From: a virus
DNA: 64,000 nt
Virus record (IMG/VR): IMGVR_UViG_3300025684_000014
Location: 32,001-96,000 of that record
Strand: one strand, 5' to 3'
Below the pieces are notes generated by a model. The model searched no databases, was not told the origin of the DNA, and was given only the letters and a program-made list of their open reading frames with translations. Position 1 is the first letter of the stretch, and the number at the start of each line of letters is the position of its first letter. Shown one piece after another: positions 3,659 to 60,984 of this stretch. The translations under genes were made by a program, and so were the position numbers.

Positions 3659-3740
3659 CCCCCATTTTCCCTCGCATACTTTTACCTGAAAGGTAAGGGA
3701 GCGTGAGGGACGACCTAAATAAGTCGTTAAACTGTTTGAA

Positions 3741-3811
3741 AAATCCTAGGGTCTCTTTACCTAGGTCGAAACGCTTTTTTGCGTCGCGGGAAGCCCGCCT
3801 GATGAGTATTT
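3741..3811 (+). ncRNA. Hammerhead ribozyme HH3 (type II topology)
   Basis: C-GAAA (3768-3771), stem III CGC/GCG, GTC (cut after 3785), stem I GCGGG/CCCGC, CTGATGA-G (3799-3806). Confidence 0.88.
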
Positions 3812-4325
3812 ACTATCAGAACTCTTACCATGGTTTTTCTTTATAAGAACTTATCATGGCTAGTTACTAGTACAGAAGTTAATAACAGACGAGGTCTGGC
3901 TTCTTGTGACTGGTACAATTCACACATTCTCTTAGCTAAAACATGCTACAGCTTAGAGTCTTATTGATTGTATGTAAATATTCGTCAACACCCTCCCTCT
4001 GCCAAAAGATTAAATTAACACTGGTTCTGTAACAGAACGAAGCATAGGCAGCGTCACTCGCTAGCCATCCGGGTTTCACGATAAAACAACCCAGGCTCTA
4101 CATACGAGCAAAAAAAAATCGTGGGGTACGCTTCTCCCGTTACATGTAATGGTCCTTAGCCTCCTCTCTGCGCAAGGCAAGACGGCTCCCCAGAACCTAT
4201 TTAATCAGCTTGGACTGTAGTCAGCAGTAATTGACCCGATGGAATGCCTTCCAGGAGGCGCACACAATTTTTTAGAGGACCTGGAATTCCTCTTCTCACT
4301 CACTGGTAAAAGGAGAAATCTTACC

Positions 4326-7300
4326 ATGAGTAATCTTAACAAACCCCGCAAGACGGCGTTTGATCGACTGTCCGCTGAGCAGCAGCTCAACTGGCAGAAG
4401 ATCAGCGTCGCTTGCGAGAACGACGAGGGGTGCACTGCCCCTCTTGCTCGCAAGAGCAAAAAAGTCGTCAAAGTGCCCCGCCCTAAGCGTCGTCAGGCGC
4501 AAAGGGCGGCCAAGCGCGTTGAGCGCCAGAACCGCCTTGAGAGCACCATCAACAACCTCAGCACAACCTCTGAGGGCCCTAGCGCCCTCAAGGCTCTCTT
4601 TGAGGGCCTAATGGTTAGTGTGTTGGTGATCGGAATGGTGATGGGCTTCTTTGCCCTCACCAACGACACCAACACGCAGTCTATCGGCTTCGATAATGGT
4701 GGTGTGTACGCCGTGAACTCTGGGAGCTCCGTGAAGAACGCGGACATCACCAGCCGCCAAGGCGCTGTGAACGCGATTGACACCATCGATCTCGCCCTTG
4801 ACCTCGCTATCAAGCACGCCCCTTCACAGAGCGCTGACCTCGGCGCTTTGGGGCTTCCTCCTCGCAGGAGGAATGACTTTGAGGGTGACGCACCCTTAAA
4901 TCCCATGAAGGGTGATCACCTCCAGAAGTTCTGGAAAAATTATCTGCACGAGCGCGCCATTTTTGAGAGCAAGCAGACCTATGCACGTCGTAAGCGTGCT
5001 TTGATCGCTCGCCTCAAGAGGGCGCAAAAGCAGGCGGCGGCAGCCCACGCCAAGAAGATGAACGCTCACGCGAACATCCTCACCGGCCAGCTCTGCTACC
5101 TCTCGAAGCGCGCCCAAGAGCACAGCGACGAGGATTTGTTGATTCAGGTCAACAAGGCCTTTGAGCTTGCTCAGGCCGCGAAGAGCGAGGAAGAGATCAT
5201 CGACCTGGTCCGTGCTCTCGAGCGTGAGATCAATGGCGACCTCTGGCGCTTTGACAACACCATTTACTTCCAGTACGAGTGTGACGCCCGTCGCTCTGCT
5301 GGTACTTCTGATCAGACGGGCAAAAAGGAGAAAAAGACATTGCGTAAAGCATTTGTCTTTGCAATTAAGCTCATTGCCGCGATGATCATCTTTAAGCTTC
5401 TTCAAGGGTTCTTCCCTGAGGATAGCTTTGGGTTGATCTTCGTTGCTGTGGTCGGCGGGACTGATGTTCCTACCGATTTTGTGGGCGACGATCTTGAGAC
5501 GGTTGCTGAGAAGCTTCAGCCTCACAGCAACCTTGGGCAGGCCCTTGCGTCCATCGAGCGTCGTATGGGGCACTTGCCGATGAGCACCATGACCCTCCTC
5601 CCTGGAGGTGATGGCGCACCAAAGGTCATCTTTAAGACCAACGGGCGCGACAACATCGGCCTTGTGCCCTTCGCTCAGGCGTTTGGTCTCGAGGCTTTGG
5701 GCGAGGACGACGTGCTTCTTATCGAGGCTAATGGCGTTCAGCAGGACGCCATCAACGAGGCTTGCCAGGCGTTCGTCCAAAAGGGCTATCGTCCAGTCGG
5801 TACGCGAATGCTCATTAAGGCGTTCAACGACGATGGGACTAGGGCTCTTGGCGCTGATTATATCGAGGCTATCGACGTCTTCCTTGGCAAAATGGTTGAC
5901 GTCAGGTCTTACTTCAGCCTGGGCAGTGCTCCTGCGCTTAAGACCTTCACCCTCGATGACGACATCTACACCGAGCGCGAGGGCGAGGACGAGGGCCGTA
6001 AGGTCTTGTGGTTCACGGGTAAGGCCAAGCACATTTTTGCCGATCTCGACGGCGTTGAGGGTGGCCTTCCCATCTCCGAGAAGGCAATGGAGGCGATCTT
6101 CGGCTCCAAGAACCCCGGTCAGCCACGCTTGATCGTCAAGCTGTGTGACGGCGTGGCTGCGATGGTCAAGGGTAACTTTGCCCCTATGGCTGTCCGCGCC
6201 TTCTTGCAGGCTGACGGCTCCTGGAAGTTCCTCACCCGTGCTCATTTCGAGAACACCGATGAGGGTAAGGCTGAGTGGCGCAAGGGCTATGACTTCGTCT
6301 TCATCGAGGACGACACGCCCAAGGGCCGTGGGAAAGACCAGCTCAAGACCGAGGATATCAAGCTCTTCGACGCGAATGGTAAGATCTCGGGCTGGCTCAT
6401 CGCTCAGGCCAAGAATGAGCAAGGCAAAAGCTTGGTTTCGTACCAGGTGCTCGCTCTCGTAGCCAAGAGTGCCGGCCTTGATGCAATCGCTGCGCACATG
6501 GAGAGCTTGATCTCTAACAGTGTGCAGAAGAGCGTTGATCAGGTCGAGCGCGATCTTGACAAGCTCGACATCCCTGGTGCTACCGTGAGCGACTTGGAGA
6601 AATTCAAGGAGCTCTTGAGCGCCATCGCACCCGGGTCTGCCCGCCAGACTCGTAAGAACCACCTTGGCTTCGGTGCTGAGGTGTTCACTGGCTACATCCA
6701 CATGAACGTGCTCATTAAGAAGGGCACAATCGTCGTGGGTGATGGCTTCGGCCTCAACAACCGTGCGATGGTCAAGCGCCGCGGCAAGTTTGGTGCAGAG
6801 GATGCTTGCGGCGGTAAGAACCCCATTCTCGACCACCAGCAAACGTGGGTCGGCAAGCTGATCCGCATTGGTGACGTCCAAAAGCTCAGGGAGAGCTTGG
6901 ACAACGGCAAGCCTCTCAGCGACGAAGAGAAGGCTTTTGCTGCTGACTTGTTTGGTGCTGACAAGCTCGATAAGGTCATTTGGATGACCGAGCAGATCAA
7001 GTGGGTTTTGAGCTTCGCTCCTGCGCTCACCCGTGGCTCGATCCTCATGAACGCAGAGGACGTCGCTGACCTTGCGGGTGATGATGACGGGGACCAGCTC
7101 TGGTTCTCGTTCGGAGATGAGCGCATCCTCGAGGTGTTCCGCCTCATCAAAGACCAGGCACAGGGCAATACGCTCTATGCCATTGAGAACAATAAGGGTG
7201 CTCAGCTCCCCTCCGAGACGGGGGCTAGAGACTTTAAAGATCTCTTGACCGCAGAAGGTGACGAGCTTACCGCGCTCTGCCGGTTCATCATGGCTCCTAA

Positions 7301-10300
7301 CAAGGGTCAGGGTCCAGTCGGCTACATGGCCAACATCTGTACCATTCTGATGGCGACCTTCCAAAAGGTTGACAATGGGAATGGCGGGATGGCTTATGAA
7401 AACGATTGGGTTGAGCGCCTTCAAGCCACACTCAACCTCATGCAACAGACGTCAATCGATCTCCAAAAGAGGATCTACTTGACGATCTGCCTCATGAGGT
7501 GGACCAAGGGTGACCTCCGCAAGGAGAAGCTGGACGGTCGTGGTCTTGTGCCTGGGTACGACTTCCCTGGCCTCGCACACGACTTCAACCCGAACGGCTT
7601 CCACCCTGAGAGCTTCAGCTCAGACGAGTACAAGGCAGCCTTGACTCAGGTTGAGATGCCCCACGTCCCAAGCCACTGGGTCTCAGGTGAGAGTTTCCCT
7701 GTTTGCACTGACAACGACAGTCAGTATGCAATCAGGGCGATTGGCTCTTGGTTGATCTGGGAGGTTTTGAGCCTCATTGTCACAGGTAAGCCTGCTGACT
7801 GGGGCGATGTTGCTGATGACGCGAAGGGCGGCCTTGATCCCTGGAGCGTGAGCAGCGAGTTTATCGGTGAGGATGGTCCTGACTTTGAGGCTTTTGCCAA
7901 GAAGTACGCCCTTACCGACGAGCAACATGCTCAGGTTCTCAACGCCTGGCGCAAGAGCCCTTCCGAGCTGTACAGCTGGAAGACGCAAGGCAAGGACGAG
8001 CCATTCGTCCAGAGAGCGCCTGCGGCTCTTGAGCTCAACCATGAGATCGCTATGCGCCTCAAGGAGAGCTACAAGCCCTCTGGCGAGGTGAAGGTTCACT
8101 TCCGCGAGGTTGAGGCCGAGATCAAGCGTCTCTTCTCCACTGACTTTGCTGGACAGGAGTGGCGTGCGCGCAAGTTTGTAGATACCCTCATCGACGGTTT
8201 CTATCTCGAGGCTGCGCTCGCTAACAACAATAAGGCAACCTCAGAGCGATTCCAAAACTCTGAGGAGCGCTCAGGGGTCGAGGCTCTTGGCTATATCCTT
8301 GAGTCGCTTGAGAACAGCTTTACGGCTTCTACAGGGGCTACAAAGGCTGACATCAAGCTGGCTCGTGCTTTTGCGGCTGCTCTCAACCCCCGTGAGCGTC
8401 GCGACAACAAGGCTCGCGAGATCGGTGTCTTCGTGATGCTCATTTCTTGGTGGACGTTAGAGTACGCAAACCAGGAGTGGATCGACCTTATCCAGCGGAA
8501 CATCACTCCTGAGGAGGGGGACAAGACTCCTAAGTACAAGGTCGCGATGGCTAAGTACGGGGTCGACGAGGCAACCGCCAAGAAGATGGTGAATGCCAAG
8601 CACTCAAAGACGATTGCGCCTGAGCTCCTCAAGTTCATCAAGGGACTCGTCAATGAGCACTTCTCGGTTAACGCTGAGAAGATGGAGGCTAAGGCCACCT
8701 GGCTCGTCGATGATGCTCTGAGCGCAGCCGTCAAGGCGATCGAGAACACAGAGATCGTGATGGCTAAGCGTGACGTCCTCAAGGAGGTCAAAGAGGCGAC
8801 CATCCGCTGGACCGACATGCGTGACAGTTGGGACCAGCGTCGTGTTGCTGTTGAGATCCTCCTCGCGGCTACAGGCTGGTTTGAGGCTTCGTGGTTTGAG
8901 GCTATGAAGGACGAGCTCAAGATGATGGCTTCCCAGACTACCAAGACTGTGGGTCAAATCCGTAAAGAGCTCAAAAACGCTGCTCCCGACGCTGACGTCG
9001 CGGCTCTCAAGACTGAGCTCAAGGTTGCATCAAAGGCTTCTTCTGCAAAGAAGTTGCTTGCGATGCTGGCTGATGATAGCCTCGGCTATGTCACTATCCT
9101 CAACGCGCTCTGTAACCCAAAGCAGAATCCTCTTGCGCGTGAGTTTGTCACCACAATGCTCGACAACAGCGGTCCTATCGTGAACGTTGAGCGTGCGTGG
9201 CAACGTGCGGATGATCTCGGCTGTGACAAGTCTGACGTCCGCGACTGGACCTGGGAGCTCGGTGACTGGGTGACTCACAAGGGCAAAGGCACCGACCCCA
9301 ACACGGGGATGCCACGTCAGAACAAGACAGTACTCTACGCGCACTCACGCGTCGAGTGGTCTTTGACTGACACGGCCACTGCACGCTTTACGCGTATTCT
9401 TCTCGAGGGTGGTGTGAGCATTTACAAGCTCACCAAGGTGCCTGCTCAGAGCTTCAAGACCTGGCGTTACTTTGACGCTTTCGTCTATGAGGCAGAGCGT
9501 ACGCCCGATTACTCCCTGGTCCATGGTGTCGGTCACCTCGTCAGCCTTGCTATCCCTACCCAAAAGCAGGCCGACGAAGAGCGTTACCGCCGCATGGCTC
9601 ACCTCGGTCACCTCGAGTGGGCTTGCCAAGCGTGGACTGATGTCGACCCCACGCTTAGCCAGGCAGACGTGCGCTATCACGTTGAGGGTCTCCGTGAGGA
9701 GATTGATCGCGTCGAGGCTCTCAAGGACAACGCCCTCATGGTGAGCTGGGGTCACCTGCTTAGTCCTATTACTTGGGGCATGCAGATCCATAGCTGGGCT
9801 GGCAAGCTGACCAAGAAGGCCATTAACGGTCGTGCTTGGGCTGCACTTGCACAGCTTGGCAAACGCGACCCCGCCTACCACGACCAGCCCAAGGTCAACA
9901 ACCTCGGGGCTGAGATCGTGACCACCGAGCTCAAGGCCCTTAACTCCAATGGCAACCACATGCCATTCAAGCGCAACTTTGGTCCTCGTAACCAAAGCCA
10001 GGCTCTTCAAAGGGCTAAGCGCATGGCGGGCAAGAACGAGGGTGAGCTTGACGACACCACCGACCTTGTGCCCTTCACCTTCGGTGATGACGAGAACACC
10101 CAGCACACTTACGCTGAGTGGCTCGACTTTATCGAGGGTGTAGCCGCCAACGGCACTGGTCCTGCTAGCGCTATGGTCCTGGCAGGCCTCTGGTACGGTG
10201 CTCATGGTGGGCGTATTGCCGCTCTGGATCCCAACGGCTCAATCTTCTCCAAGGAGATTGCTGAGAAGATCCAAAAGCGTCTCTTGCGCTGCCCCGCCTA

Positions 10301-10427
10301 CGAGGTTCGCCTCCACATTGAGGACCTCCTCAAGGGCGAGTACGTCGCTCCTGTTAGCAAGCCAACTGACAAAGAGAGCGCGGAGGCCTTCTTCGCCGTG
10401 CTTCGCCGTAAGGCTGGCCTCGCTTAA
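4326..10427 (+). CDS. Single-subunit two-barrel RNA polymerase, YonO / cellular RdRP-like, with an N-terminal membrane-containing extension
   Basis: ATG 4326 after AAGGAGA. Motifs in the expected order: DGVEGGLPISE, QPRL..VKG, GKNPILDH (6816), DLAGDDDGD (DxDGD at 7080-7094), VGYMANICT, QTSIDLQK. Confidence 0.8.
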   Translation: MSNLNKPRKTAFDRLSAEQQLNWQKISVACENDEGCTAPLARKSKKVVKVPRPKRRQAQRAAKRVERQNRLESTINNLSTTSEGPSALKALFEGLMVSVLVIGMVMGFFALTNDTNTQSIGFDNGGVYAVNSGSSVKNADITSRQGAVNAIDTIDLALDLAIKHAPSQSADLGALGLPPRRRNDFEGDAPLNPMKGDHLQKFWKNYLHERAIFESKQTYARRKRALIARLKRAQKQAAAAHAKKMNAHANILTGQLCYLSKRAQEHSDEDLLIQVNKAFELAQAAKSEEEIIDLVRALEREINGDLWRFDNTIYFQYECDARRSAGTSDQTGKKEKKTLRKAFVFAIKLIAAMIIFKLLQGFFPEDSFGLIFVAVVGGTDVPTDFVGDDLETVAEKLQPHSNLGQALASIERRMGHLPMSTMTLLPGGDGAPKVIFKTNGRDNIGLVPFAQAFGLEALGEDDVLLIEANGVQQDAINEACQAFVQKGYRPVGTRMLIKAFNDDGTRALGADYIEAIDVFLGKMVDVRSYFSLGSAPALKTFTLDDDIYTEREGEDEGRKVLWFTGKAKHIFADLDGVEGGLPISEKAMEAIFGSKNPGQPRLIVKLCDGVAAMVKGNFAPMAVRAFLQADGSWKFLTRAHFENTDEGKAEWRKGYDFVFIEDDTPKGRGKDQLKTEDIKLFDANGKISGWLIAQAKNEQGKSLVSYQVLALVAKSAGLDAIAAHMESLISNSVQKSVDQVERDLDKLDIPGATVSDLEKFKELLSAIAPGSARQTRKNHLGFGAEVFTGYIHMNVLIKKGTIVVGDGFGLNNRAMVKRRGKFGAEDACGGKNPILDHQQTWVGKLIRIGDVQKLRESLDNGKPLSDEEKAFAADLFGADKLDKVIWMTEQIKWVLSFAPALTRGSILMNAEDVADLAGDDDGDQLWFSFGDERILEVFRLIKDQAQGNTLYAIENNKGAQLPSETGARDFKDLLTAEGDELTALCRFIMAPNKGQGPVGYMANICTILMATFQKVDNGNGGMAYENDWVERLQATLNLMQQTSIDLQKRIYLTICLMRWTKGDLRKEKLDGRGLVPGYDFPGLAHDFNPNGFHPESFSSDEYKAALTQVEMPHVPSHWVSGESFPVCTDNDSQYAIRAIGSWLIWEVLSLIVTGKPADWGDVADDAKGGLDPWSVSSEFIGEDGPDFEAFAKKYALTDEQHAQVLNAWRKSPSELYSWKTQGKDEPFVQRAPAALELNHEIAMRLKESYKPSGEVKVHFREVEAEIKRLFSTDFAGQEWRARKFVDTLIDGFYLEAALANNNKATSERFQNSEERSGVEALGYILESLENSFTASTGATKADIKLARAFAAALNPRERRDNKAREIGVFVMLISWWTLEYANQEWIDLIQRNITPEEGDKTPKYKVAMAKYGVDEATAKKMVNAKHSKTIAPELLKFIKGLVNEHFSVNAEKMEAKATWLVDDALSAAVKAIENTEIVMAKRDVLKEVKEATIRWTDMRDSWDQRRVAVEILLAATGWFEASWFEAMKDELKMMASQTTKTVGQIRKELKNAAPDADVAALKTELKVASKASSAKKLLAMLADDSLGYVTILNALCNPKQNPLAREFVTTMLDNSGPIVNVERAWQRADDLGCDKSDVRDWTWELGDWVTHKGKGTDPNTGMPRQNKTVLYAHSRVEWSLTDTATARFTRILLEGGVSIYKLTKVPAQSFKTWRYFDAFVYEAERTPDYSLVHGVGHLVSLAIPTQKQADEERYRRMAHLGHLEWACQAWTDVDPTLSQADVRYHVEGLREEIDRVEALKDNALMVSWGHLLSPITWGMQIHSWAGKLTKKAINGRAWAALAQLGKRDPAYHDQPKVNNLGAEIVTTELKALNSNGNHMPFKRNFGPRNQSQALQRAKRMAGKNEGELDDTTDLVPFTFGDDENTQHTYAEWLDFIEGVAANGTGPASAMVLAGLWYGAHGGRIAALDPNGSIFSKEIAEKIQKRLLRCPAYEVRLHIEDLLKGEYVAPVSKPTDKESAEAFFAVLRRKAGLA

Positions 10428-10502
10428 TTAATAATCCTGGCGTGATGCACTATCCAAATATCTAGCCGTCTTTTTCGGTGAGATAAGTGTGTTGCGTCAG
10501 GG

Positions 10503-10566
10503 CGTGTCAGGTCGGAGCAATTCTGCCGAGATCTCTGATGAGTATGTCTCAGGACAACGAAACACG
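10503..10566 (+). ncRNA. Hammerhead ribozyme HH4 (type III)
   Basis: CGTG-TC (cut after 10508), stem I AGGTC/GATCT, CTGATGA (10535-10541), stem II GT..TGTC/GACA..AC, GAAA-CACG. Confidence 0.88.
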
Positions 10567-10604
10567 AATCAGCAGCTCAAAATACATTCATAAGGAGAAT
10601 AAAA

Positions 10605-11096
10605 TTGAGCGATTTCGATAAGCTCCTTGCCGCCCTCATGGCGGGGGGTTCGACTGTCAACGTGACCGTAATCAACGCGGTACACCCTGGCGGTGTAGTC
10701 AACATCAAGAACGGGTGCGTTGATGTTGAAAAGTCTAATGCACCCACCCCTAAGAAGGCTCAGGGGGAGAAGAAGAGCCAGGAGGAGCCACTCCACGATG
10801 ACCACACCTCTGCAGCTGAGGATGCTGTTGGTGGGGGTGACGAGGCTCCAATCGACACCACCCCCGCTGAGCGGAATCGCGGTGGTGGTACTCCAGAGGG
10901 GTCACCGCTCCTCGCTCAGGTGAAGGGCAAGCTCCTCGCCTTGAGTGAGGAATTGACGAACAGGGTTGTCAGCCATATCGATCGCATCAGCTCGCTGAGC
11001 AAGGACGATCTCGAGAAGATCGCTGCGATTGAGGACAGTGACCTCGACAACCTCGACGAGATCCTCGACAACCTCTTTCCTGACCTTGCTTCTTAA
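10605..11096 (+). CDS. Acidic low-complexity hypothetical protein
   Basis: TTG start after AAGGAG; codon usage like the polymerase gene. Confidence 0.65.
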   Translation: MSDFDKLLAALMAGGSTVNVTVINAVHPGGVVNIKNGCVDVEKSNAPTPKKAQGEKKSQEEPLHDDHTSAAEDAVGGGDEAPIDTTPAERNRGGGTPEGSPLLAQVKGKLLALSEELTNRVVSHIDRISSLSKDDLEKIAAIEDSDLDNLDEILDNLFPDLAS

Positions 11097-11251
11097 ACAA
11101 GGTTAACTTTAAACTCATCATACACTATCACTCCTAAATCATTATAATATGGTGATAACGACTCCGCCAAACTCCGCCAAGCGGAGCTTGGCACCCCTGT
11201 CGGGGTGAGGAAATGGAGGGCTCTGCCCCCCAAACCCCCCGTGTTGTAGGG

Positions 11252-11714
11252 GTGAGGTGATGTATGGTGAAAGGAAATCAGTATGTCTGACACAACTTTC
11301 GACCCAAAGTTGCTCTGTTTTATTTCCCCCTCGGGGGAGTTTCAAGCACTAGCTCCTCTGATCGCACTTGTGCGTGATGAGCAGCTCGTTTTCCAGGCAA
11401 ACCGGCCTCTTTTGGAGGGGTTCGGGTGCCAAAGCGATGAGCAGACCAAGCAGGGATTCGACTTTCTCAAGTCAATCTCTCTCTCGTCCACTTTTAATTC
11501 ATGGGCGAATGAGGAAGAGGGGTCCTCCGGGATTTCGTCTAAGTCACTGGTCGCGTCGGCAACGACGCCCGGTGCAATCCTGACCCTCGTGGGCCTTCTA
11601 AGGAGTCATCCTGACGCTTCGGCGTCAGGAACCTTGACCGTCAACTACGCCAACCCCGCGCGCCGCGCAGGGGTGGGGCGTCCCCGCTAACTAAACCCCC
11701 ATACATCACCTCAC
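11252..11714. repeat. Perfect 16-bp inverted repeat bracketing ORF 11283-11690
   Basis: GTGAGGTGATGTATGG (11252-11267) and CCATACATCACCTCAC (11699-11714). Confidence 0.9.
11283..11690 (+). CDS. Hypothetical protein enclosed by a 16-bp inverted repeat
   Basis: RBS AAGGAAA, 135 aa. Confidence 0.6.
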   Translation: MSDTTFDPKLLCFISPSGEFQALAPLIALVRDEQLVFQANRPLLEGFGCQSDEQTKQGFDFLKSISLSSTFNSWANEEEGSSGISSKSLVASATTPGAILTLVGLLRSHPDASASGTLTVNYANPARRAGVGRPR

Positions 11715-11829
11715 ACCGCTTAGCGCGTTCTTTTCCGTAAGGAGACGAGACGCTGAGTGGCACCTCTTTGAGTAGAGGGGCGTAGGATAAGCGTTAAAAG
11801 CGTAATCCTTGGTCGCCTAGACCTAAACT

Positions 11830-11900
11830 CGTCCCCCTAAAGCAGAGTAAAATCTGTGGATGGGGCTGATGTGGCTCTTTCGGGAGCCGAAACGCATCAG
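11830..11900 (+). ncRNA. Variant hammerhead-like element HH5 (type III, CUGAUGU core)
   Basis: CG-TC, stem I CCCC/GGGG, CTGATGT (A9U), stem II GGCTCT-TTCG-GGAGCC, GAAA-CG. Stem III is very short. Confidence 0.5.
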
Positions 11901-13270
11901 TAGTCACCGTTGATGACTTTAAACTCAACCCCTGTGAGTTAGGGCAAAATACTTGCTACCTTTAGGGGTAGCGCCTCAGTGTGTGTGGGTGAACCACCAT
12001 CGCACATAGAAGGAAGCAGTGTAGGTACTGTGACCTGATGAGGTAAAAACGGTTGGCAACCATGTTGCTGGGCACCTATGCCTCACACTAGCTATCCTAC
12101 AATAGCTAAGAGAAAAATAGGGAGGTTAAATCACCTCGGTCTTTTTTAAAGGTTGAAGAATGGGGTTAGCGATTATAGACATGATCGTGAAGCTCAATGC
12201 GCTATGAAGGGAACATAGTAGCGCGACTCGTTGTGAGTATAAAAACCGAAAGCGGAAATCCTAGGTATCCGTAAGTAGAAGAAGAATGTCTCAGGTTGTT
12301 GAAACTGACCTGGATTACTTTGGATTGATCCCCAAAGAATTAAATAGTCAGCGGCTAGCATAGTATGCCGCGATCTTGGATTGGAACCCCAAGATCAAGG
12401 AGTTGCTTGTAACTTCATCACTACCTTATAAGGGGCAATTCTGGAAGCTTTTCCAGAGCTGATAGATTGTCTTTTATAGGGTAGGCATCACAAGATCGAC
12501 ATTGTTGGGCACGGCAATGTTTAAAGATTAGCAACTATTAGTTGTTATAGTGTCCTGCCGTAGACCGATTACTGTAGAGTAATCATCATAGGCGGGGTAG
12601 GGACGGTATCTGTGGATACTATAACCCTTCAATTTTATGCCCCTTCAGACTGGCTACTTCTTCGTAGTTAGGGGACAGGCAATGCACTTTAGTGTAGCAG
12701 AGGCCAGTCAGCCGGTGATAGGTATGCCGGTGGTGATTTTGAGGTTAATCGTACTCAAACTCAAGAACCAAGACACCTGCGGGGACATAACTCCCTTTGA
12801 TCGTTGACCAGGCGATCAGCTATCTACGGATAGGCACATTGGGCGACTGCAGGCATGTAGTCTAGAAGTGAATGCTAAGTACATCCCTCACACACGAAAG
12901 AAGGTCGTCATGACTGGTATCGTGGAGTGTACATCAGGCTTCCGCGTCTTTTGGCGCGGTTGCCTGATCGGTGCGTTTGCCTCTTTTGAGGTGGCGCACC
13001 GTGAGCTCCTCTCTATCTCAGAGTAAAATCTGAGTAGGGAGTGAGCTTCTCCTGAGCATGACGTTAAAAGGCTCAACATGCTTTGGCTGACAGTATCGAC
13101 TGTTGACTCGAGCAAAATAGTGTCTCTTTTAGAGAGGAGATGCTATTTAGTCTTACGGCTCTTTATTTAAGGAGACGTTAAGGCAAGCCCTTTTATCAGG
13201 GTATAGGTTATAGGTGAGACACCGAGCCTAGTAGAATATATATTCTATGAAGTTACGTTTAGTAACAAAA
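11900..13270 (+). ncRNA. Large, highly structured non-coding RNA region (unidentified)
   Basis: No credible ORF; near-continuous hairpins; long-range stem TATCCGTA (~12266) / TACGGATA (~12825). Confidence 0.6.
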
Positions 13271-13274
13271 AAGT

Positions 13275-13467
13275 TCACCATGGCAGGGTAAGTAAAAGCC
13301 CGGTGAGGAAGGTAAGCTTCTTAATATGTCATTTATGGCCACCAAGGTTGGTGCCAGAGGGTTCTAGAGTCCACTACGTGCGAAGTTACAGCTAGTACGC
13401 AGTGAACTCATTCAAAGAGACTGTAATCTCTTTGCTCTGGTAGCCGGTTCAATCCCGGCATGGTTAT
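13275..13467 (+). ncRNA. tRNA-like RNA with expanded interior
   Basis: Acceptor-like ACCAT/ATGGT, D-like GGGT/GCCC, canonical T arm GCCGG-TTCAATC-CCGGC. Internal stem TGCCAGAG/CTCTGGTA holds a hairpin with loop CTGTAA. Confidence 0.5.
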
Positions 13468-13474
13468 TTAACGC

Positions 13475-13590
13475 ACCCCGTAGCTGGGGTCGAAACACAG
13501 TCTTTCTCGGATGTAGGAGAGAGTTAATAGGAGTCGCGTACCTATTGTTAAAACTGTGTCGGGCTAGCTTAGGCCCCTGAAGAGAACCAG
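13475..13590 (+). ncRNA. Hammerhead ribozyme HH6 (type II topology)
   Basis: C-GAAA (13492-13495), stem III CACAG/CTGTG, GTC (cut after 13560), stem I GGGC/GCCC, CTGAAGA-G (13577-13584). Confidence 0.88.
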
Positions 13591-13636
13591 ACATCCCGCC
13601 TTACTTCAGCCTCGTTGCATATAAAGGAGAAATACT

Positions 13637-14005
13637 ATGCAATTCCTTAACATCTCTAACCACCCCGTAGAGGGTTGGTCAGCGTCACAGCGCGAGGCGG
13701 CCCTCGCGCTCGCTCCTGAGGCTGACTTGCTCGATGTTGATTTTCCAACCCTCGACCCTCAGTGGTCGAGGGTAAAGGTCAAGGTGAAAGCGATCGAGTT
13801 TATAGACGATCTCGACCCTCGGCCTGGCGCGAGGGCAATGGTAGCGGGTGAGGAGCCTATAATGTGTTTCTACCTCGTGCGTGAACTCCAGGCACTCGGG
13901 GTGGCCTGCTACAGCGCGACCACTGAGCGCGTGGTCGAGGAGCGCGACGGTGTAAAAACCTCGCGCTTCTCATTTGTGCGCTTTCGTGAGTGGCCTGCTC
14001 TCTAA
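13637..14005 (+). CDS. Csx20-like CRISPR-associated protein homolog; candidate ring nuclease
   Basis: SNHPxxxWxxxQ, FPxxDP, GE, ATTER and KTSRFSFVRFREW match small type III CRISPR ancillary proteins; RBS AAGGAG. Confidence 0.7.
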   Translation: MQFLNISNHPVEGWSASQREAALALAPEADLLDVDFPTLDPQWSRVKVKVKAIEFIDDLDPRPGARAMVAGEEPIMCFYLVRELQALGVACYSATTERVVEERDGVKTSRFSFVRFREWPAL

Positions 14006-14044
14006 GAGTTAGGTCGCTCCGGGCAGAGTAAACTGCCATAAAAA

Positions 14045-14268
14045 ATCCAGGTAATGTTATTCACCTGCTCTTACAATAAGAGAAAAGAAATAACAAACTT
14101 CTTTGAGGAGACGAGACTCGAAGAGACCGCTAAGGTAATGTAGCGGTATATAAATAACGAGGCGTCACCCCCAATAAGTCTAATAGGCAGGGGGAACTAC
14201 ATCCACGCCTACATCGGAACAACATAAGAAGCTTAGGAATTTCTTATGCCGTGAGCATTATCTGGGAT
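14045..14268 (+). ncRNA. Structured ncRNA candidate (~225 nt)
   Basis: Ends pair (ATCCAGGTAATGTT / AGCATTATCTGGGAT) and enclose several hairpins; ends 6 nt before a tRNA-like gene. Confidence 0.5.
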
Positions 14269-14274
14269 GATTAG

Positions 14275-14439
14275 GCAGGGTTAGCTCAGTGATAGAGCGC
14301 TAGCAGCCAACCGTCTGTTGTAAAGAAAGTCAAGCCTAGGAAACTTGATAAGTAATTACAATGGGTTAAGGTAAACATACGAGCTTCCTATCGTATGGGC
14401 AACATGCTAGAAGCGTTGGTTTGATTCCAGCACCCTGCA
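14275..14439 (+). tRNA. tRNA-like RNA with a ~99-nt structured insert replacing the anticodon loop
   Basis: Acceptor GCAGGGT/ACCCTGC-A, D arm TAGCTCAGTGATAGAGC, anticodon stem CTAGCA/TGCTAG, T arm GTTGG-TTTGATT-CCAGC; insert 14306-14404. Confidence 0.75.
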
Positions 14440-14549
14440 GCAGCCAAGAATGTATGAAGCCTCCACGTGGCTCTTGGCGGAAATGGCAATCATTGAAGTG
14501 ATTGCGTCAGCTAATATCATACACAAACCATTAAAAAGGAGAAAAAGAC

Positions 14550-14678
14550 ATGTGTATCTGTTGTCATCAGTACACTGTCAGATGGTGGAAAATCCGCCGT
14601 CTGACAGCAAGCACTGTGCTTTACGGAGCACAGTGCGATACTTGTGGCGCTGACTGGGAAGAAACAGTCAAAGAGTAA
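14550..14678 (+). CDS. 42-aa zinc-finger microprotein
   Basis: Strong RBS AAGGAGA; MCICCHQ...CDTCGADW. Confidence 0.6.
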   Translation: MCICCHQYTVRWWKIRRLTASTVLYGAQCDTCGADWEETVKE

Positions 14679-14867
14679 TAGCGCCGCAACCCCTAGAGAA
14701 TCCAAAAAGCTTGATTCCAGAGCGTATGAATTGGGTACTCTAGGGGGTAAACACTTTTCTTACACCAAACTCAAATTTGAGAAAACCTCGATTCCAAAGC
14801 GTAAAGAGACATTTTAGTCAAAAGTCGCGGCGGAAGAAAAATTCTCAGGATTAAAAGGATCAAAAAA

Positions 14868-15152
14868 ATGAGAAAGCCTAAGAAAATAATAAGCTTTTGT
14901 GAGTATCACGAAAAGTTCAATTGTGAGGAGTGTGAGGGGCTCCTCTTTGCTACCTTCGAGGAGGTGGCGAAAAGGTACGGTGACTTTGATGTCACCTACC
15001 GTAATGGAGTATTGGAGGGGGTGTGGATTAAGAGCTGGAGCGAGTTTACTTGCTCCAGCTTTAAGAACCACTACAAAGGAGGGTGGGTCATTATAGAGCC
15101 CGGGGCATGGGCTTGGGAGGTTAGGAAAGTGCGCGTGGAGGCGCACGACTGA
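14868..15152 (+). CDS. Hypothetical protein (Cys/His motif)
   Basis: RBS AAGGA; CEYH...CEEC. Confidence 0.6.
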   Translation: MRKPKKIISFCEYHEKFNCEECEGLLFATFEEVAKRYGDFDVTYRNGVLEGVWIKSWSEFTCSSFKNHYKGGWVIIEPGAWAWEVRKVRVEAHD

Positions 15153-15463
15153 TGGGTGGCGCCATGTGCTTAGCAATCTCAGTCATCTCCCTCGTGTGGG
15201 GAGGGATGCACTTGGGATGGGGTGATTGGTATGTGGCGCCGTTTCTTCTTGTCTTTTTAACTCCTTCTCTTTACGAAGAGACACTGTTGAAAGGATACGA
15301 GGAGACGGCAAGGATACACGTAGACAACGCATGGTACATCTTCACGTATCGTGCAGTACTGTTTTGTATTCTATGTGTATTCTACATCCCATGGATCTTA
15401 GTAAGTGACATTGCAAAAGACTCATGGGAATATCTCGAGGAGACTTTTTCTCCTAATCTTTAA
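15152..15463 (+). CDS. Hypothetical membrane protein
   Basis: Start overlaps the previous stop; hydrophobic segments. Confidence 0.5.
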   Translation: MGGAMCLAISVISLVWGGMHLGWGDWYVAPFLLVFLTPSLYEETLLKGYEETARIHVDNAWYIFTYRAVLFCILCVFYIPWILVSDIAKDSWEYLEETFSPNL

Positions 15464-15535
15464 ACTTTTTTTAACTTTTTTTGTTTCAGACTTGAAACAT
15501 CAGCAAGTAATCTGTAAATAATAAGGAAAAATATA

Positions 15536-15961
15536 ATGAGTAACGAGACTACATCTTCAACCCTTTCTCAAACCCTTTCTTCAAACCCTTCTCAGACCCT
15601 TTCACACAAGACAGTTCAGCAAGCACATCAAGCTCTGTTTGACAGCCTTCCTGAGAGTCTTCGCAAGTACTTGCAGATTCATGCGTTTACTTCAAAGGTC
15701 TCTTGCATTAAGCTTCAGAAGGGAGCGTTCCGCAGTTTCATGGCGGAAGGCGGCCGTATTCTCAAGACAGATAACTTCGAGATTATTTGTCAAGATGCAG
15801 TTAATACGATCTTGAATCACGTTGTTTCACAAGATGCAACAATGCGTGTTGATGCACGACACCTTTACAACGATTACCTGGGTATTCACGTATACCTTGG
15901 TACTAACAACGTAGATGATCTCATTAAGTGGATCGCCGCTCAGAATGGTGGTAATCAATGA
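15536..15961 (+). CDS. Hypothetical protein
   Basis: RBS AAGGA; operon-like packing. Confidence 0.65.
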   Translation: MSNETTSSTLSQTLSSNPSQTLSHKTVQQAHQALFDSLPESLRKYLQIHAFTSKVSCIKLQKGAFRSFMAEGGRILKTDNFEIICQDAVNTILNHVVSQDATMRVDARHLYNDYLGIHVYLGTNNVDDLIKWIAAQNGGNQ

Positions 15962-16287
15962 GTAGCGAATCTTTAAGAGAGAATGTTTACAAGACAGCAC
16001 TTAGAGACTTACAAGATCTACCTTCTTGGGGTAGAATCGTACTGGCTTTTCTAGTGTTGTTTGTTATTGTGAAATGGACGCCTATTTTTGATTTGTTATA
16101 CCTGGCGTTCATGATTGTTTTAGTACCAACAGCATTTCTTATTTGTTTAGCATTATTTTCTATGGATACTTTTAATATGTTTCTCAGTACAGTTAATATG
16201 ATTGCTGAGAGTATTAAGCAAGGTATCAGGGAGAATAATCAGGATGCGCCGGCTGATCAGCAAGTTGATCAAGAGGAGCAGGCTTAA
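15958..16287 (+). CDS. Hypothetical membrane protein
   Basis: Two TM segments; ATGA overlap. Confidence 0.65.
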   Translation: MSSESLRENVYKTALRDLQDLPSWGRIVLAFLVLFVIVKWTPIFDLLYLAFMIVLVPTAFLICLALFSMDTFNMFLSTVNMIAESIKQGIRENNQDAPADQQVDQEEQA

Positions 16288-16289
16288 TC

Positions 16290-16532
16290 TTGAATTATTT
16301 ATTATGCGGCTTCATCATTAGTATTATTATTGTCGCTTATATGGATTATCTGATTAGAGGTATTCTAGGAAAAGATAATAAATATGGCGCGGGGTATTAC
16401 GTACCTCACTTAACTGTAATCACATTAGTAACTTTTTGTTGGCCTCTTGTATTGTTCAAGATGGCCTTTCTTGACGGTTCAGTACAAAAGCTAGCCTCTC
16501 AAATGGCTAAAAACATAAAGGAATTCGCATAA
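16290..16532 (+). CDS. Hypothetical membrane protein
   Basis: Two TM segments; tight packing. Confidence 0.55.
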   Translation: MNYLLCGFIISIIIVAYMDYLIRGILGKDNKYGAGYYVPHLTVITLVTFCWPLVLFKMAFLDGSVQKLASQMAKNIKEFA

Positions 16533-58093: not shown

Positions 58094-60984
58094 ATGTCTT
58101 CCTTTTTGAGAGAAGATGTTCTAAAAAAGATTGACCCTTATATAGATTTAGAAAGATATTCTCAAATAGATCCTGATTATTTCAAGCAAGAAGTAATTAT
58201 GGCTTCTTATGAAGATTTACACAGAATACAAGCTTCCTTATCTAACAATCTTTTTTATAAATCAAATCCTCACAACTCTATTTTACTTTATTTAACTAAA
58301 CTCACTGATGATTTTGATTTTAACAAAGCAAGATCAAATACTACTGGTGGCGCACCCCCCGATGTAGACCTGGATCATGATGCATTAGATCGTGAAAAGG
58401 CTATTCAATGGTGTATTGATTATTGGGGCAGAGAGCGTGTTGCAAATATTATTACTCACGGTACATTTAAACCAAAGAGTTTAGCTCGTTCTTATTATCG
58501 AATTACCGAAAAAGATCAATCTGATCTTAATGATTTATTAGCAATGATCCCTCCCCCTAAATACGGAAAAGAAGCTACTCTTGAAGAAATATTGGAACAA
58601 AACCCCAACATTTCAGAAGAGCAAAGGTATGCAGCATTTCTTGAATTTGCTGACCGTATAGAAGATATGGTTGCTAACTTTGGTATCCATGCTGCAGGTG
58701 TTATTATTTCTGATACTGAAATAAGTGATAACATTCCTATTTGGTCAAATAGTAAAGCAGATAGAATAACTCAATACGATAAAGATGAATGCGAAGATCT
58801 TGGTCTTCTTAAATTCGACTTTCTTGGTATTGATACTCTTTCTGTTATTAAAGAATGTACAGCACTTATTGAAGAACAAACAGGTGAAAAAATTGAACCT
58901 TACGCTATTCAAGATGGTGATGAACTAGCTTATAAATATCTCAATGAAGGATGTCTTACTGGAATTTTCCAAATGGAAACTTCTGGTACTGCCAAGAAAT
59001 TAATACTTGATATTAAACCTCAAAGTATTGAAGATTTAAGTGCTATTAGCGCCATCAATTGGTGGCCTTAAAAGCGGGTCAATTGCGGGAAACTCCTTAG
59101 AGCTTTAACTACTAAATCTTATTAGAGATAATAAGGTGGCCAAGCTAATCACTTGGGTATAGTAAAAATGTTGAAGATTGGACAATCCGCAGCCACGAAT
59201 CCTAATCCGATTCAGGTTCAGAGACTAGGTGAGCACACCAGCTTACATTGAGTAATTGATGTAATGCGACCCCGCTACTCTTTTATTAAGAGGAATGATA
59301 TAGTCCGTTTACTAGTGAAAGCTAGTAGTTAGGTCGAAAGGCCTAACTGTTTGACTTTATGAAGAACATCTTCTTCAGAATCGTCATATTTTATTATTAA
59401 TAAATTGATATTATTTTGTTCACAAAAATCTTTTTTAATTTGATCACGTTTTTTACAGAGCTCAAAATCTTCTTCTTTTTTATAAAAGAAATTTACATAT
59501 TCGTAATGCTGTCTACCGTTATACTCGACAACAAGATTCAACTCTTTAAAATACGCATCGCACCTAAGTTTGTATTTATATTTTAAGCCAAAAAACTTTT
59601 TTTGTTTTTCTGCTTTTAACCCAAAGAGCTCTTCAAGACGCTCTATCCATATATTTTCAGAACTATAAAAAGTTCTTGGGCTGTATTCTAACCCAAAAAA
59701 CTCACAACAGTTTTCGATATTTCCGTATCTTTTTAAAATTGTTACGCGGCTTATATTTGTAAATTTATCTATGTTTTCTGAACAAATATTATCTTTTATT
59801 TTTAATAATTCTTTTTTAATATCTTCGTCTGAAAAATTTAACTGCTTGTTATCATATTTATTTATCTCAGGATGACCTTCAAAAAACCCACCGAAACTAC
59901 CATAAAGTCTTCTATATACTTTGTGGTTTATTTTTCCATGTTTTTCTAGAAGTCCTTTAGAAAAAAATCCAAATTCTTTTTCTAATCGCTTAGCTTCTAA
60001 AAGACAATCTTCTTTTGAATGAACTTTTCTTTTACTCCCTTTAGTACTTGTTGTTATTTTTGTGGTATCTATCAGGTTGTGCATTTCTTTGAATGCGCCT
60101 AAAGATCCAAAATGAGTTCTAATACTTCTTCTAGTAAAGTCACAATTTTCTTCAACAAGAGGTACTGTTAAGCGCCCATGTACTTTATGAATAGCAAGCA
60201 ATTCTTTTTCACAATCAGATTTAGATATTCTATGATGATTCATACGAAACCTTTCTTTGAGTATACACCTATTATATACTCTTTGCTTAGGCTTGTCAAA
60301 CAATTCCTTCGCAATCGCCCCGGGCCGCTACAAGCTGGTCTTGATAAAACTTATATTACAAATAAATTAAACAACTCTCCGCCAGAAGATCTTCCAGAAA
60401 ATGTAGCTGAAATACTTAAAGCTTCTTATTGGACTCTTATATACCAAGAACAAATTATGAGGCTATTTACTGATCTTGCTGGTTTTACACAACAGGAAGC
60501 TGATGATGTTAGACGAGCAATGGGTAAGAAAAAGCTTTCTGTTCTTGAGAAATATAAAGAGCAATTCCTTAATGGCGCAACTTCTATTGGTGGTCTTATG
60601 GCTGATTACGCTGATAGTTTATGGAATGATATTTTGGGTTTTGCTGATTATTGCCTTGCAGGTGATACCGAAATATTACTTCCAATAGGTACTAAAAGAT
60701 CAACAAAAATTAAAGATATTATTAAAGATCAATATAATGGTTTTGCTTTATCTTATGATACTCAAGTAAATAGTTGGTCTGCAGAGTCCCCTTATTGTGC
60801 TCAACATATATCTCAATGGCATGATAAAGGAATAAAAGATGTATACAGATATGTTTTAGAAGATGGTTCTTATGTTGATTGTACTGAAAATCATAGTTTT
60901 TTGTTAAGTAATAAAAAATCTTATGCTGAAATAGATAAAATTTATACTAAAAAATTAGAAATATATTCTACAAAAGATGATTGA
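58094..60984 (+). CDS. dnaE: DNA polymerase III alpha, middle piece, spliced (exons 58094-59055 and 60312-60984; 544 aa), ending in a split N-intein
   Basis: PDVDLD, GIHAAGV, LLKFDFLG, GIFQME, SAI|NRPGP, YQEQIM, RRAMGKKK, GFADY then CLAGDTEI. Confidence 0.9.
59329..60243 (-). CDS. Intron-encoded endonuclease (homing-endonuclease-associated repeats plus DUF559/Vsr-like domain), antisense to the intron
   Basis: Repeated ...FGS/YGS/YGN units; LRCDAYF...VEYNGRQHY...RDQIK; ATG 60243 after GAAAGG. Confidence 0.8.
   Translation of the reverse strand: MNHHRISKSDCEKELLAIHKVHGRLTVPLVEENCDFTRRSIRTHFGSLGAFKEMHNLIDTTKITTSTKGSKRKVHSKEDCLLEAKRLEKEFGFFSKGLLEKHGKINHKVYRRLYGSFGGFFEGHPEINKYDNKQLNFSDEDIKKELLKIKDNICSENIDKFTNISRVTILKRYGNIENCCEFFGLEYSPRTFYSSENIWIERLEELFGLKAEKQKKFFGLKYKYKLRCDAYFKELNLVVEYNGRQHYEYVNFFYKKEEDFELCKKRDQIKKDFCEQNNINLLIIKYDDSEEDVLHKVKQLGLST
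60271..60299 (-). promoter_or_regulatory. Consensus sigma70 promoter driving the antisense endonuclease
   Basis: TTGACA-17 nt-TATAAT on the minus strand. Confidence 0.85.
60652..60984 (+). other. Split intein, N-terminal half
   Basis: CLAGDTEIL...QWHDKGIKDVYRYVLEDGSYVDCTENHSFL...IDKIYTKKLEI then stop; no C-terminal HN motif. Confidence 0.9.

Follow-up and report, generated by a model that had tools for sequence, protein, structure and literature searches.

A ribozyme-bounded gap beside a giant phage polymerase gene as a candidate source of two large structured RNAs

An ORF-free gap flanked and split by ribozyme-like motifs

Analysis of a 64,000-nucleotide (nt) stretch of virus DNA, here called the window (bases 32001–96000 of the 123,667-base linear IMG/VR virus record IMGVR_UViG_3300025684_000014, estimated to be 79% complete), uncovered a ~1.9-kilobase (kb) gap free of open reading frames (ORFs) that may encode two large structured non-coding RNAs (ncRNAs). 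The source phage is uncultured, its habitat is marine or estuarine, and the genes in the window are oriented almost wholly on the plus strand. A giant polymerase ORF (4239–10427, plus strand, 2062 amino acids (aa)) is followed on the same strand by two small ORFs, ORF1 (10605–11096) and ORF2 (11283–11690), the second ending directly before the gap (11691–13636, 1946 nt), which extends to the next plus-strand gene at 13637–14005. The stretch is present in a single copy in the virus record, and the nearest transfer RNA (tRNA) genes of the phage lie 3.4–5.4 kb downstream of the gap.

The original prediction of a region without a plausible coding frame is borne out, with 34–54 stop codons in each of the six frames of the gap. 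Its proposed extent (11900–13270) is indeed non-coding, although the ORF-free stretch is wider at both ends. The longest open stretch measures 84 codons, or 162 with one stop codon reassigned, and the ORF list holds no plus-strand ORF of at least 60 aa in the gap. An alternative genetic code was rejected as an explanation, since no frame is opened by any single stop reassignment. Among plus-strand stop codons, TAG is over-represented (57, vs 38 TAA and 40 TGA; three frames, 1946 nt). GC content drops from ~0.57 to 0.42–0.50 within the gap, with positive GC skew throughout; the polymerase gene sits in a GC-rich island (0.55–0.60), and the rest of the genome has a GC content of 0.33–0.45. A promoter scan was uninformative (3 promoter-like sites vs 4.6 expected), and the 11 terminator-like sites (4.0 expected) are mostly the hairpins of the stretch themselves.

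Near its start, the gap contains a motif with the type III hammerhead layout (HH5; 11826–11897, plus strand), with a GUC triplet and a predicted cut at 11833/11834. Stem I (CCCC/GGGG) surrounds the hairpin CAGA-GUAAAA-UCUG, stem II is GGCUC/GAGCC, and the GAAA at 11889 comes with an A15.1–U16.1 pair. The motif, named in the first reading, is recovered by our own descriptor, which specifies the core, GAAA, an NUH triplet, and three stems of consecutive pairs around the core, and which leaves position 9 free in its relaxed form. The descriptor records 4/6/3 consecutive pairs for stems I/II/III of HH5. Under the relaxed form, HH5 is the sole match in the window, and the reversed-sequence controls of seven sources give none.

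Near its end, the gap also contains a hammerhead motif (HH6; 13481–13590, plus strand), recognized by our descriptor and from the sequence, which has a type II layout, a GUC triplet, and a predicted cut at 13560/13561. Its core is perfect (CUGAAGA at 13577, GAAA at 13492), the seven pairs of stem III enclose a 61-nt insert, a hairpin makes up stem I, and the open stem II has just two consecutive pairs; the Rfam models give no match to it at an expectation value (E) ≤ 10. The predicted cut would leave a 76-nt leader ahead of ORF 13637–14005. HH6 and a hammerhead with a cut after 3785 (13470–13590 and 3740–3830) share an odd layout, with about two open stem II pairs and a closed hairpin that abuts, on its 5′ side, the C before GAAA. 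A further candidate hammerhead cut at 2070 was not recovered by the descriptor, and no GAAA was found there.

Between HH5 and HH6, 805 nt after the HH5 cut, lies a candidate hepatitis delta virus (HDV)-like ribozyme (12639–12708, plus strand; predicted cut 12638/12639), missed in the first reading and found by the Rfam scan at E ≤ 10. It matches model RF02682 with 29.4 bits (E 0.014 in 4.8 kb, 0.058 in 20 kb). P1 (GCCCCU with AGGGG(A)C), P3 with its loop L3, and P4 (UGCAC/GUGUA) are present, the three helices being aligned by the model, and the C of J4/2 (GCAGA) aligns with the catalytic C of the family consensus GCUAAG. The P2 pseudoknot (ACUGGC/GCCAGU), read from the sequence, forms six Watson-Crick pairs in the expected places, and constitutes independent support because a covariance model cannot score a pseudoknot. 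The elements follow the order of a nested double pseudoknot, with a P1.1 (GG with UC of L3) that is possible but weak, and P1 has two weak points, a bulged A beside the cleavage-site pair and one non-standard pair. In a related strain, insertions after 12686 and 12692 pair mutually and lengthen P4, and the loop becomes GUAA. Together, P2 and these paired insertions point to a maintained HDV fold.

Other sub-threshold ribozyme matches lie on either side of the gap. Over 10400–15200, the Rfam scan at E ≤ 10 returned three such matches: the HDV-like candidate, a type III hammerhead at 10501–10568 (24.8 bits), and a second HDV-like match (14443–14521, plus strand; 24.1 bits, below the Rfam cut-off). 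The latter starts just downstream of a tRNA-like scaffold, 3 nt past its discriminator base. This scaffold (14276–14439) has acceptor, D, and T arms and a ~100-nt insert in place of the anticodon loop, and is called by neither ARAGORN nor Rfam. The available text of PMC10879173 places the cleavage site of tRNA-associated theta ribozymes no more than 5 nt to either side of the tRNA 3′ end; because the layout at 14443 matches this published context, it becomes more likely that HDV-like ribozymes serve this phage in making 3′ ends.

No known family accounts for the gap. In agreement with the view that no family could be assigned, the stretch has no GOLLD, ROOL, OLE, group II intron, or RNase P match at E ≤ 10, and 10400–15200 yielded no match to large RNAs, HEARO, group I or II introns, RNase P, transfer-messenger RNA (tmRNA), or 6S at either the gathering score or E ≤ 10. 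The sole intron match in the window (59005–59327) lies outside the gap.

Folding, RNA library contigs, and natural variants

The predicted cuts delimit two RNA units on the plus strand, unit A (11834–12638, 805 nt), from the hammerhead cut to the HDV-like cut, and unit B (12639–13560, 922 nt), with the HDV-like ribozyme at its 5′ end and a body at 12709–13560. No plus-strand ORF of at least 30 aa lies wholly within unit A. Its minimum free energy (MFE) is −281 kcal/mol (z = −6.95 on the plus and −3.36 on the minus strand), and that of unit B is −331.8 kcal/mol (z = −7.98); for each unit, none of 20 shuffles was as stable. Over 11900–13270, the MFE is −517.5 kcal/mol on the plus vs −404.9 kcal/mol on the minus strand, and 13 segments of 200 nt have a mean z of −3.4, compared with −0.84 for the background (38 segments of 200 nt from 20–58 kb of the window). 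The stretch had been described as structured from wall to wall, of which the strong plus-strand fold stands and the continuity does not: peaks of z = −5 to −7 occur at 12300–12600 and 12900–13300, and values are near zero at 12600–12900, with −0.6 and −0.25 for the segments that begin at 12600 and 12700. At its 5′ end, the poorly folded patch holds the pseudoknotted HDV-like candidate, which MFE folding cannot score.

The hairpin arms named earlier are present at 12372/12389, 12933/12962, 12970/12995, and 13115/13137. In the last of these, two positions pair only as G·U and would be A·C mismatches on the opposite strand, which supports the plus strand as the RNA strand. A long-range stem proposed to close ~560 nt is absent from the MFE structure of 11834–13560, whose long-range helices span 271–390 and 849–1407 nt and are not above chance expectation. 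The recurring 14-nt hairpin was located correctly, with exact copies of CAGAGTAAAATCTG at 11843 and 13019 and the variant CAGAGTAAACTG at 14024; when three mismatches are allowed, 30 of 100 shuffles give an equal number of matches. The body of unit B holds the second copy of the CAGAGUAAAAUCUG hairpin (13019–13032). It also holds a T-loop-like hairpin, GCCGG-UUCAAUC-CCGGC (13443–13459), with a canonical T-loop, around which no tRNA or tmRNA model matches.

We then consider 22 listed public runs from 17 studies of marine, estuarine, and sediment metagenomes. Part of the stretch is contained in 20 of them, nine of which hold at least half of its words, and six of the 20 are RNA libraries. DNA runs also contain the stretch, showing that it is encoded in phage DNA. 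Contigs of four runs were placed on 9000–16500: two RNA runs from one study (X12 and X13), one RNA run from another (X18), and one DNA run (X14). X12 yielded one 759-nt contig on 11848–12604 (word depth 88.9) and X13 one 779-nt contig on 11847–12601 (word depth 150.7), each with one substitution and two one-base insertions. These are the deepest and longest contigs, the other X12 and X13 pieces on the 7.5 kb being 68–285 nt long with depths of 7–19. In two RNA libraries of one study, the interval from one predicted cut to the next was recovered as a single, nearly full-length contig, and little of its surroundings was assembled.

The small X12 and X13 contigs in unit B include 12651–12838 and 13209–13380, and the downstream pieces start at 12651 and 12654. 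Contig starts fall 12–15 nt past each predicted cut (11847/8 for the cut before 11834, 12651/4 for that before 12639). X18 contributes pieces at 11559–11747 and 12008–12211, at a depth of 3–4. Neither X12 nor X13 has pieces on 9000–11760 or 12605–12650; an uncovered part proves nothing by itself, and the missing cover is at most a weak argument that the unit A contig does not stem from carried-over DNA.

Natural variants, few in number, were read from the X12, X13, and X14 contigs, which represent related strains. In unit A, T12026C of the RNA-run contigs turns a predicted G·U pair into G-C. In unit B, G12783A and C12794T are compensatory (G-C to A-U), and T12796C again replaces G·U with G-C. 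Together with the insertions after 12686 and 12692, these few compensatory or pair-improving changes may reflect selection on structure. Pieces of unit A in the three runs are 99.6–100% identical, vs 86–95% for many neighboring pieces. Since a mixture of strains or mosaic genomes would account for this excess just as well, we do not take it as a sign of conservation.

Taken together, the region probably comprises two RNAs, of 805 and 922 nt, split by the HDV-like candidate. It had been pictured as either one ribozyme-released large RNA or an array of small RNAs; the ribozyme-bounded large RNA survives, whereas the HDV-like split and the single RNA contig over unit A favor neither one 1.4-kb RNA nor a small-RNA array.

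A conserved position in related phages

Thirty-three proteins in the database are related to the giant ORF, and their alignment was used to recover nine metagenome loci. Six of these (L003, L004, L005, L006, L007, and L009) have sequence downstream of the polymerase gene; L008, L010, and L011 were left out because their contigs end within it. The closest relatives (P0002–P0006) have polymerases 60–91% identical to that of the window, and the contigs encoding them were left out of the covariation sample. In five of the six loci, the polymerase gene is followed by two small ORFs and then an ORF-poor gap; the sixth, L005, has 60% GC and is filled with spurious ORFs. ORF2 is the sole neighboring protein common to the window, L003, L004, and L005 in tblastn searches. 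The gap is most likely a slot for a large structured ncRNA that a family of uncultured phages from marine and estuarine habitats has kept.

A two-box leader accompanies this position. In the window it occupies 11704–11752 on the plus strand, between the ORF2 stop codon and the hammerhead, and consists of the boxes CATCACCTCACA (11704–11715) and GTAAGGAGACGAGAC (11738–11752), the second followed by two hairpins. The first box has a single exact copy in the window and an identical 12-mer in L005 (7279–7290), and the second recurs at 14104–14118 of the window. Variants of both boxes follow ORF2 in L003, L004, L007, and L009, and the leader lies at 10660–10712 in L003, at about 8080–8120 in L004, and at 7279–7330 in L005. 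It is kept in phages whose polymerases are just 34–49% identical to that of the window, with a box spacing that varies from ~4 to 30 nt. The leader is a candidate promoter or signal for processing.

The hammerhead at the head of the gap has counterparts as well. Canonical CUGAUGA type III hammerheads lie between the ORF2 homolog and the gap in two relatives, L003 (stems 5/7/5, predicted cut following 10759) and L005 (stems 5/6/4, predicted cut following 7382), the position of HH5 in the window, and HH5 gains support from them. In all three motifs, stem I is long and contains an inner hairpin, and the stem sequences differ while pairing is kept. Rfam hammerhead models miss the L003 and L005 motifs as well as HH5, probably owing to the long stem I, a subtype found in these phages that the models overlook. 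In L006, a type III hammerhead with the core CUGAAGU (12114–12260) sits between the polymerase gene and ORF1, the position of the 10501–10568 hammerhead in the window.

Structure in the gaps of the relatives was assessed by folding and covariation. Mean z values are −1.6 for L003, −2.3 for L004, −5.1 for L005, −2.7 for L006, and −2.6 for L009. The gaps of L006, L007, and L009 are 78–88% identical over 1.1–1.6 kb, whereas the polymerase genes of L006 and L007 barely align at the DNA level. The consensus fold of their conserved core (~1.2 kb) contains 322 pairs in 53 helices and is 97.6% paired. Both partners have changed in 17 of these pairs; column shuffles give 6.8 ± 1.9 (none of 500 reaches 17), and slid-partner controls 0–3. 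The conserved block ends ~15 nt before the ribosome-binding site of the next gene, and no ribozyme was found at its 3′ end. Two stretches that precede the polymerase gene, L006 3227–4642 and L007 1–1409, are also 93.9% identical, which could reflect mosaic exchange or another strongly conserved element.

Searches for known families in these loci were negative: Rfam gave no matches at the gathering score or at E ≤ 10, and ARAGORN found no tRNA or tmRNA in the gap of the window or in the six relatives' loci. A blastn search of the stretch against 50,697 phage records gave no hits, and four scans of viral contigs returned no related locus; a 25-nt exact pattern had no match in viral contigs, and genome contigs likewise yielded none. 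One weak locus from the viral-contig scans (L002) was set aside as unrelated, with nothing in common with the window by blastn. Among seven neighboring proteins, one weak DUF6525 match is the only Pfam or PHROG assignment. The giant polymerase relatives share an invariant DDDGD motif in their alignment; the protein itself has no Pfam match, searching the PDB with a profile of that alignment returned zero matches, and neither search confirmed a YonO/QDE-1-like label.

Proposed maturation, alternatives, and known systems

We read the region as encoding a new type of large ncRNA in phages, processed by ribozymes acting in cis, and consider it on balance probable that two large folded plus-strand ncRNAs are excised from a longer transcript by built-in ribozymes. 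In this model, HH5 would cut after 11833, the HDV-like ribozyme after 12638, and HH6 after 13560, releasing units A and B, each with a 5′-OH and a 2′,3′-cyclic phosphate end. Such ends are the established chemistry of the hammerhead and HDV-like classes and, on general principles of bacterial RNA turnover, would probably slow decay. Unit A would then accumulate as a discrete stable RNA that acts in trans. Judged solely by its conserved location, behind the giant polymerase gene and the two small ORFs, it may serve the polymerase module, in phage transcription, or host takeover.

Several observations weigh against this interpretation. The region had been placed between two hammerheads, and hammerhead-type motifs do flank it, but HH5 lacks the strict A9 core: it reads CUGAUGU, with U at position 9, compared with the consensus C3 U4 G5 A6 N7 G8 A9 given in the available text of PMC3088659. 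For this reason we call HH5 hammerhead-like and no proven member of the class. Its stem III has just three pairs, the region can refold as a plain hairpin that hides the core, and no Rfam hammerhead model matches at E ≤ 10; taken on its own, HH5 is doubtful. The L006 core given above is a second, independent U9 variant, and the two suggest that the lineage tolerates the change. The HDV-like candidate scores below the RF02682 gathering score of 44 bits. Low z values are not specific to the gap and are instead a property of the whole GC-rich island, because the polymerase gene (4300–10300) is also well folded (mean z = −3.04, 12 segments of 200 nt). The body of unit A is almost invariant, with essentially no covariation support for its own fold, which therefore rests on thermodynamics.

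The comparative and RNA evidence has its own counterweights. By blastn and nhmmer, the gap of the window has no similarity to those of the relatives except in the leader (E 0.67), so that homology of the gap RNA bodies across subgroups is not established. The identity among the L006, L007, and L009 gaps could partly stem from mosaic recombination, and the covariation, from three sequences and a structure derived from the same ones, is supportive and not conclusive. The two strongest RNA runs, X12 and X13, belong to one study. Their contigs give no strand, true ends, or reliable level, depth being a poor measure of expression. Finally, the unit A contig ends at 12601/4, which is 34–37 nt short of 12638; an adapter-like tail in X13 would fit a tagmented library that loses the ends of molecules.

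One alternative, in line with the first reading, is a single continuous ~1.73-kb RNA between the 11833 and 13560 cuts, in which the HDV-like motif is inactive or a structural domain. The sub-gathering score and the bulged A in P1 beside the cleavage-site pair are in its favor, and the MFE structure of the whole 1727 nt places 80 pairs across 12638/12639. Yet the long-range helices are not above chance for 1.7 kb, contigs on either side of the site are roughly tenfold apart in depth, and the P2 pseudoknot and paired P4 insertions point to a maintained HDV fold. Moreover, no X12 or X13 contig bridges 12605–12650, where contig ends and starts flank a hole, itself of little weight. We regard a continuous RNA as unlikely.

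An equally unlikely reading takes the stretch as a structured spacer or untranslated region (UTR) of a polycistronic messenger RNA (mRNA), in which ribozymes and hairpins set mRNA ends, stability, and flanking translation and the released pieces are functionless by-products. It has a precedent in the tandem hammerheads flanking genes of prophage-like operons, which cleave in ~2-kb in vitro transcripts according to the available text of PMC3088659. The defined 76-nt leader that HH6 would give to ORF 13637–14005 fits this role too, as does the block in L006, L007, and L009 that reaches almost to the next ribosome-binding site with no 3′ ribozyme found. However, 1.7 kb of dense structure is not needed to space three ribozymes, the gap of these relatives is better conserved than their polymerase gene and carries compensatory changes along ~1.2 kb, and unit A gives the deepest and longest X12 and X13 contig of the 7.5 kb.

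We give little credence to the possibility that CAGA-GUAAAA-UCUG, the recurring hairpin, marks a site of processing or protein binding at which a nuclease, in place of the hammerhead, makes the 5′ end. Both RNA contigs do start within the hairpin loop (11847 and 11848), and the hairpin recurs exactly at 13019 and as a variant at 14024. Against this, X12 and X13 contigs cross the 14024 copy (13933–14081 and 13898–14045), and the 12–15-nt offset is also seen after the HDV-like site, where no such hairpin exists. Two exact copies and a variant are few, given how often shuffles match as well. Least plausible of all is a functionless remnant of decayed genes, a mobile element, or an intron with incidental fold and RNA signal: the GC drop and the unrelated gap bodies of the relative subgroups would fit it, but the region has no intron, transposon, or other family match, contains compensatory variants, keeps its position, leader, and hammerhead, and reaches z values near −7 to −8.

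Within the model of two excised RNAs, a more specific version is very improbable, namely that unit A is a DNA-encoded viroid-like RNA, closed by a host RtcB-type ligase or serving as template or regulator of the giant polymerase. No circular junction is reported in the four runs, where contigs are shorter than 805 nt, stop at both ends, and drop rare forms, and no RtcB gene was found in the 79%-complete record. If true, the ribozyme-bounded slot would mark a new RNA-based module in a marine phage family. Viroid-like circular RNAs and Obelisks, as far as the available accounts describe them, are likewise highly folded RNAs of ~1 kb with self-cleaving ribozymes, found in aquatic RNA data; the gap RNA differs in being encoded by phage DNA, with no circular junction seen and no Oblin-like ORF.

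To our knowledge, few large structured RNAs of undefined job are on record. Each new class of large RNA has led to new biology or RNA architecture, such as the nanocages of GOLLD and ROOL, which are phage-linked and found near tRNA genes. A literature search of limited coverage found no description of a comparable RNA. The RNA proposed here holds a conserved genomic position beside an uncharacterized giant polymerase, is seen in environmental RNA libraries, and would mature by a testable pathway that combines ribozymes of two classes. Like GOLLD, ROOL, and OLE, it is non-coding and densely structured over several hundred nt or more, with a function that is not known (PMC12286853, available text); it differs in matching none of their Rfam models at E ≤ 10 and in being bounded by ribozymes.

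With theta and minimal HDV-like ribozymes, the system would share a cleavage site that defines the 3′ end of the upstream RNA (PMC10879173, available text). That RNA would here be a ~800-nt ncRNA and not a tRNA, and the candidate at 12639–12708 has a P4 and resembles the F. prausnitzii-type model below its cut-off. The habitats also differ, marine or estuarine here, whereas the same text assigns >80% of theta ribozymes to gut phages. Of the 526 occurrences that it counts away from tRNAs, 493 fall in non-coding regions, and it does not settle what they do; the pathway proposed here would give phage HDV-like ribozymes without an adjacent tRNA a function, the 3′-end formation of a large ncRNA. 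The tandem hammerheads of prophage-like operons offer a parallel in layout, with several on one strand cutting polycistronic RNA between units, and natural hammerheads include core variants and very short stem II (PMC3088659, available text). Their cargo consists of protein genes, whereas the cargo here is predicted to be large ncRNA, with a ribozyme of a different class as the second cutter; the locus would thereby extend tandem-hammerhead operons to non-coding cargo and mixed ribozyme classes.

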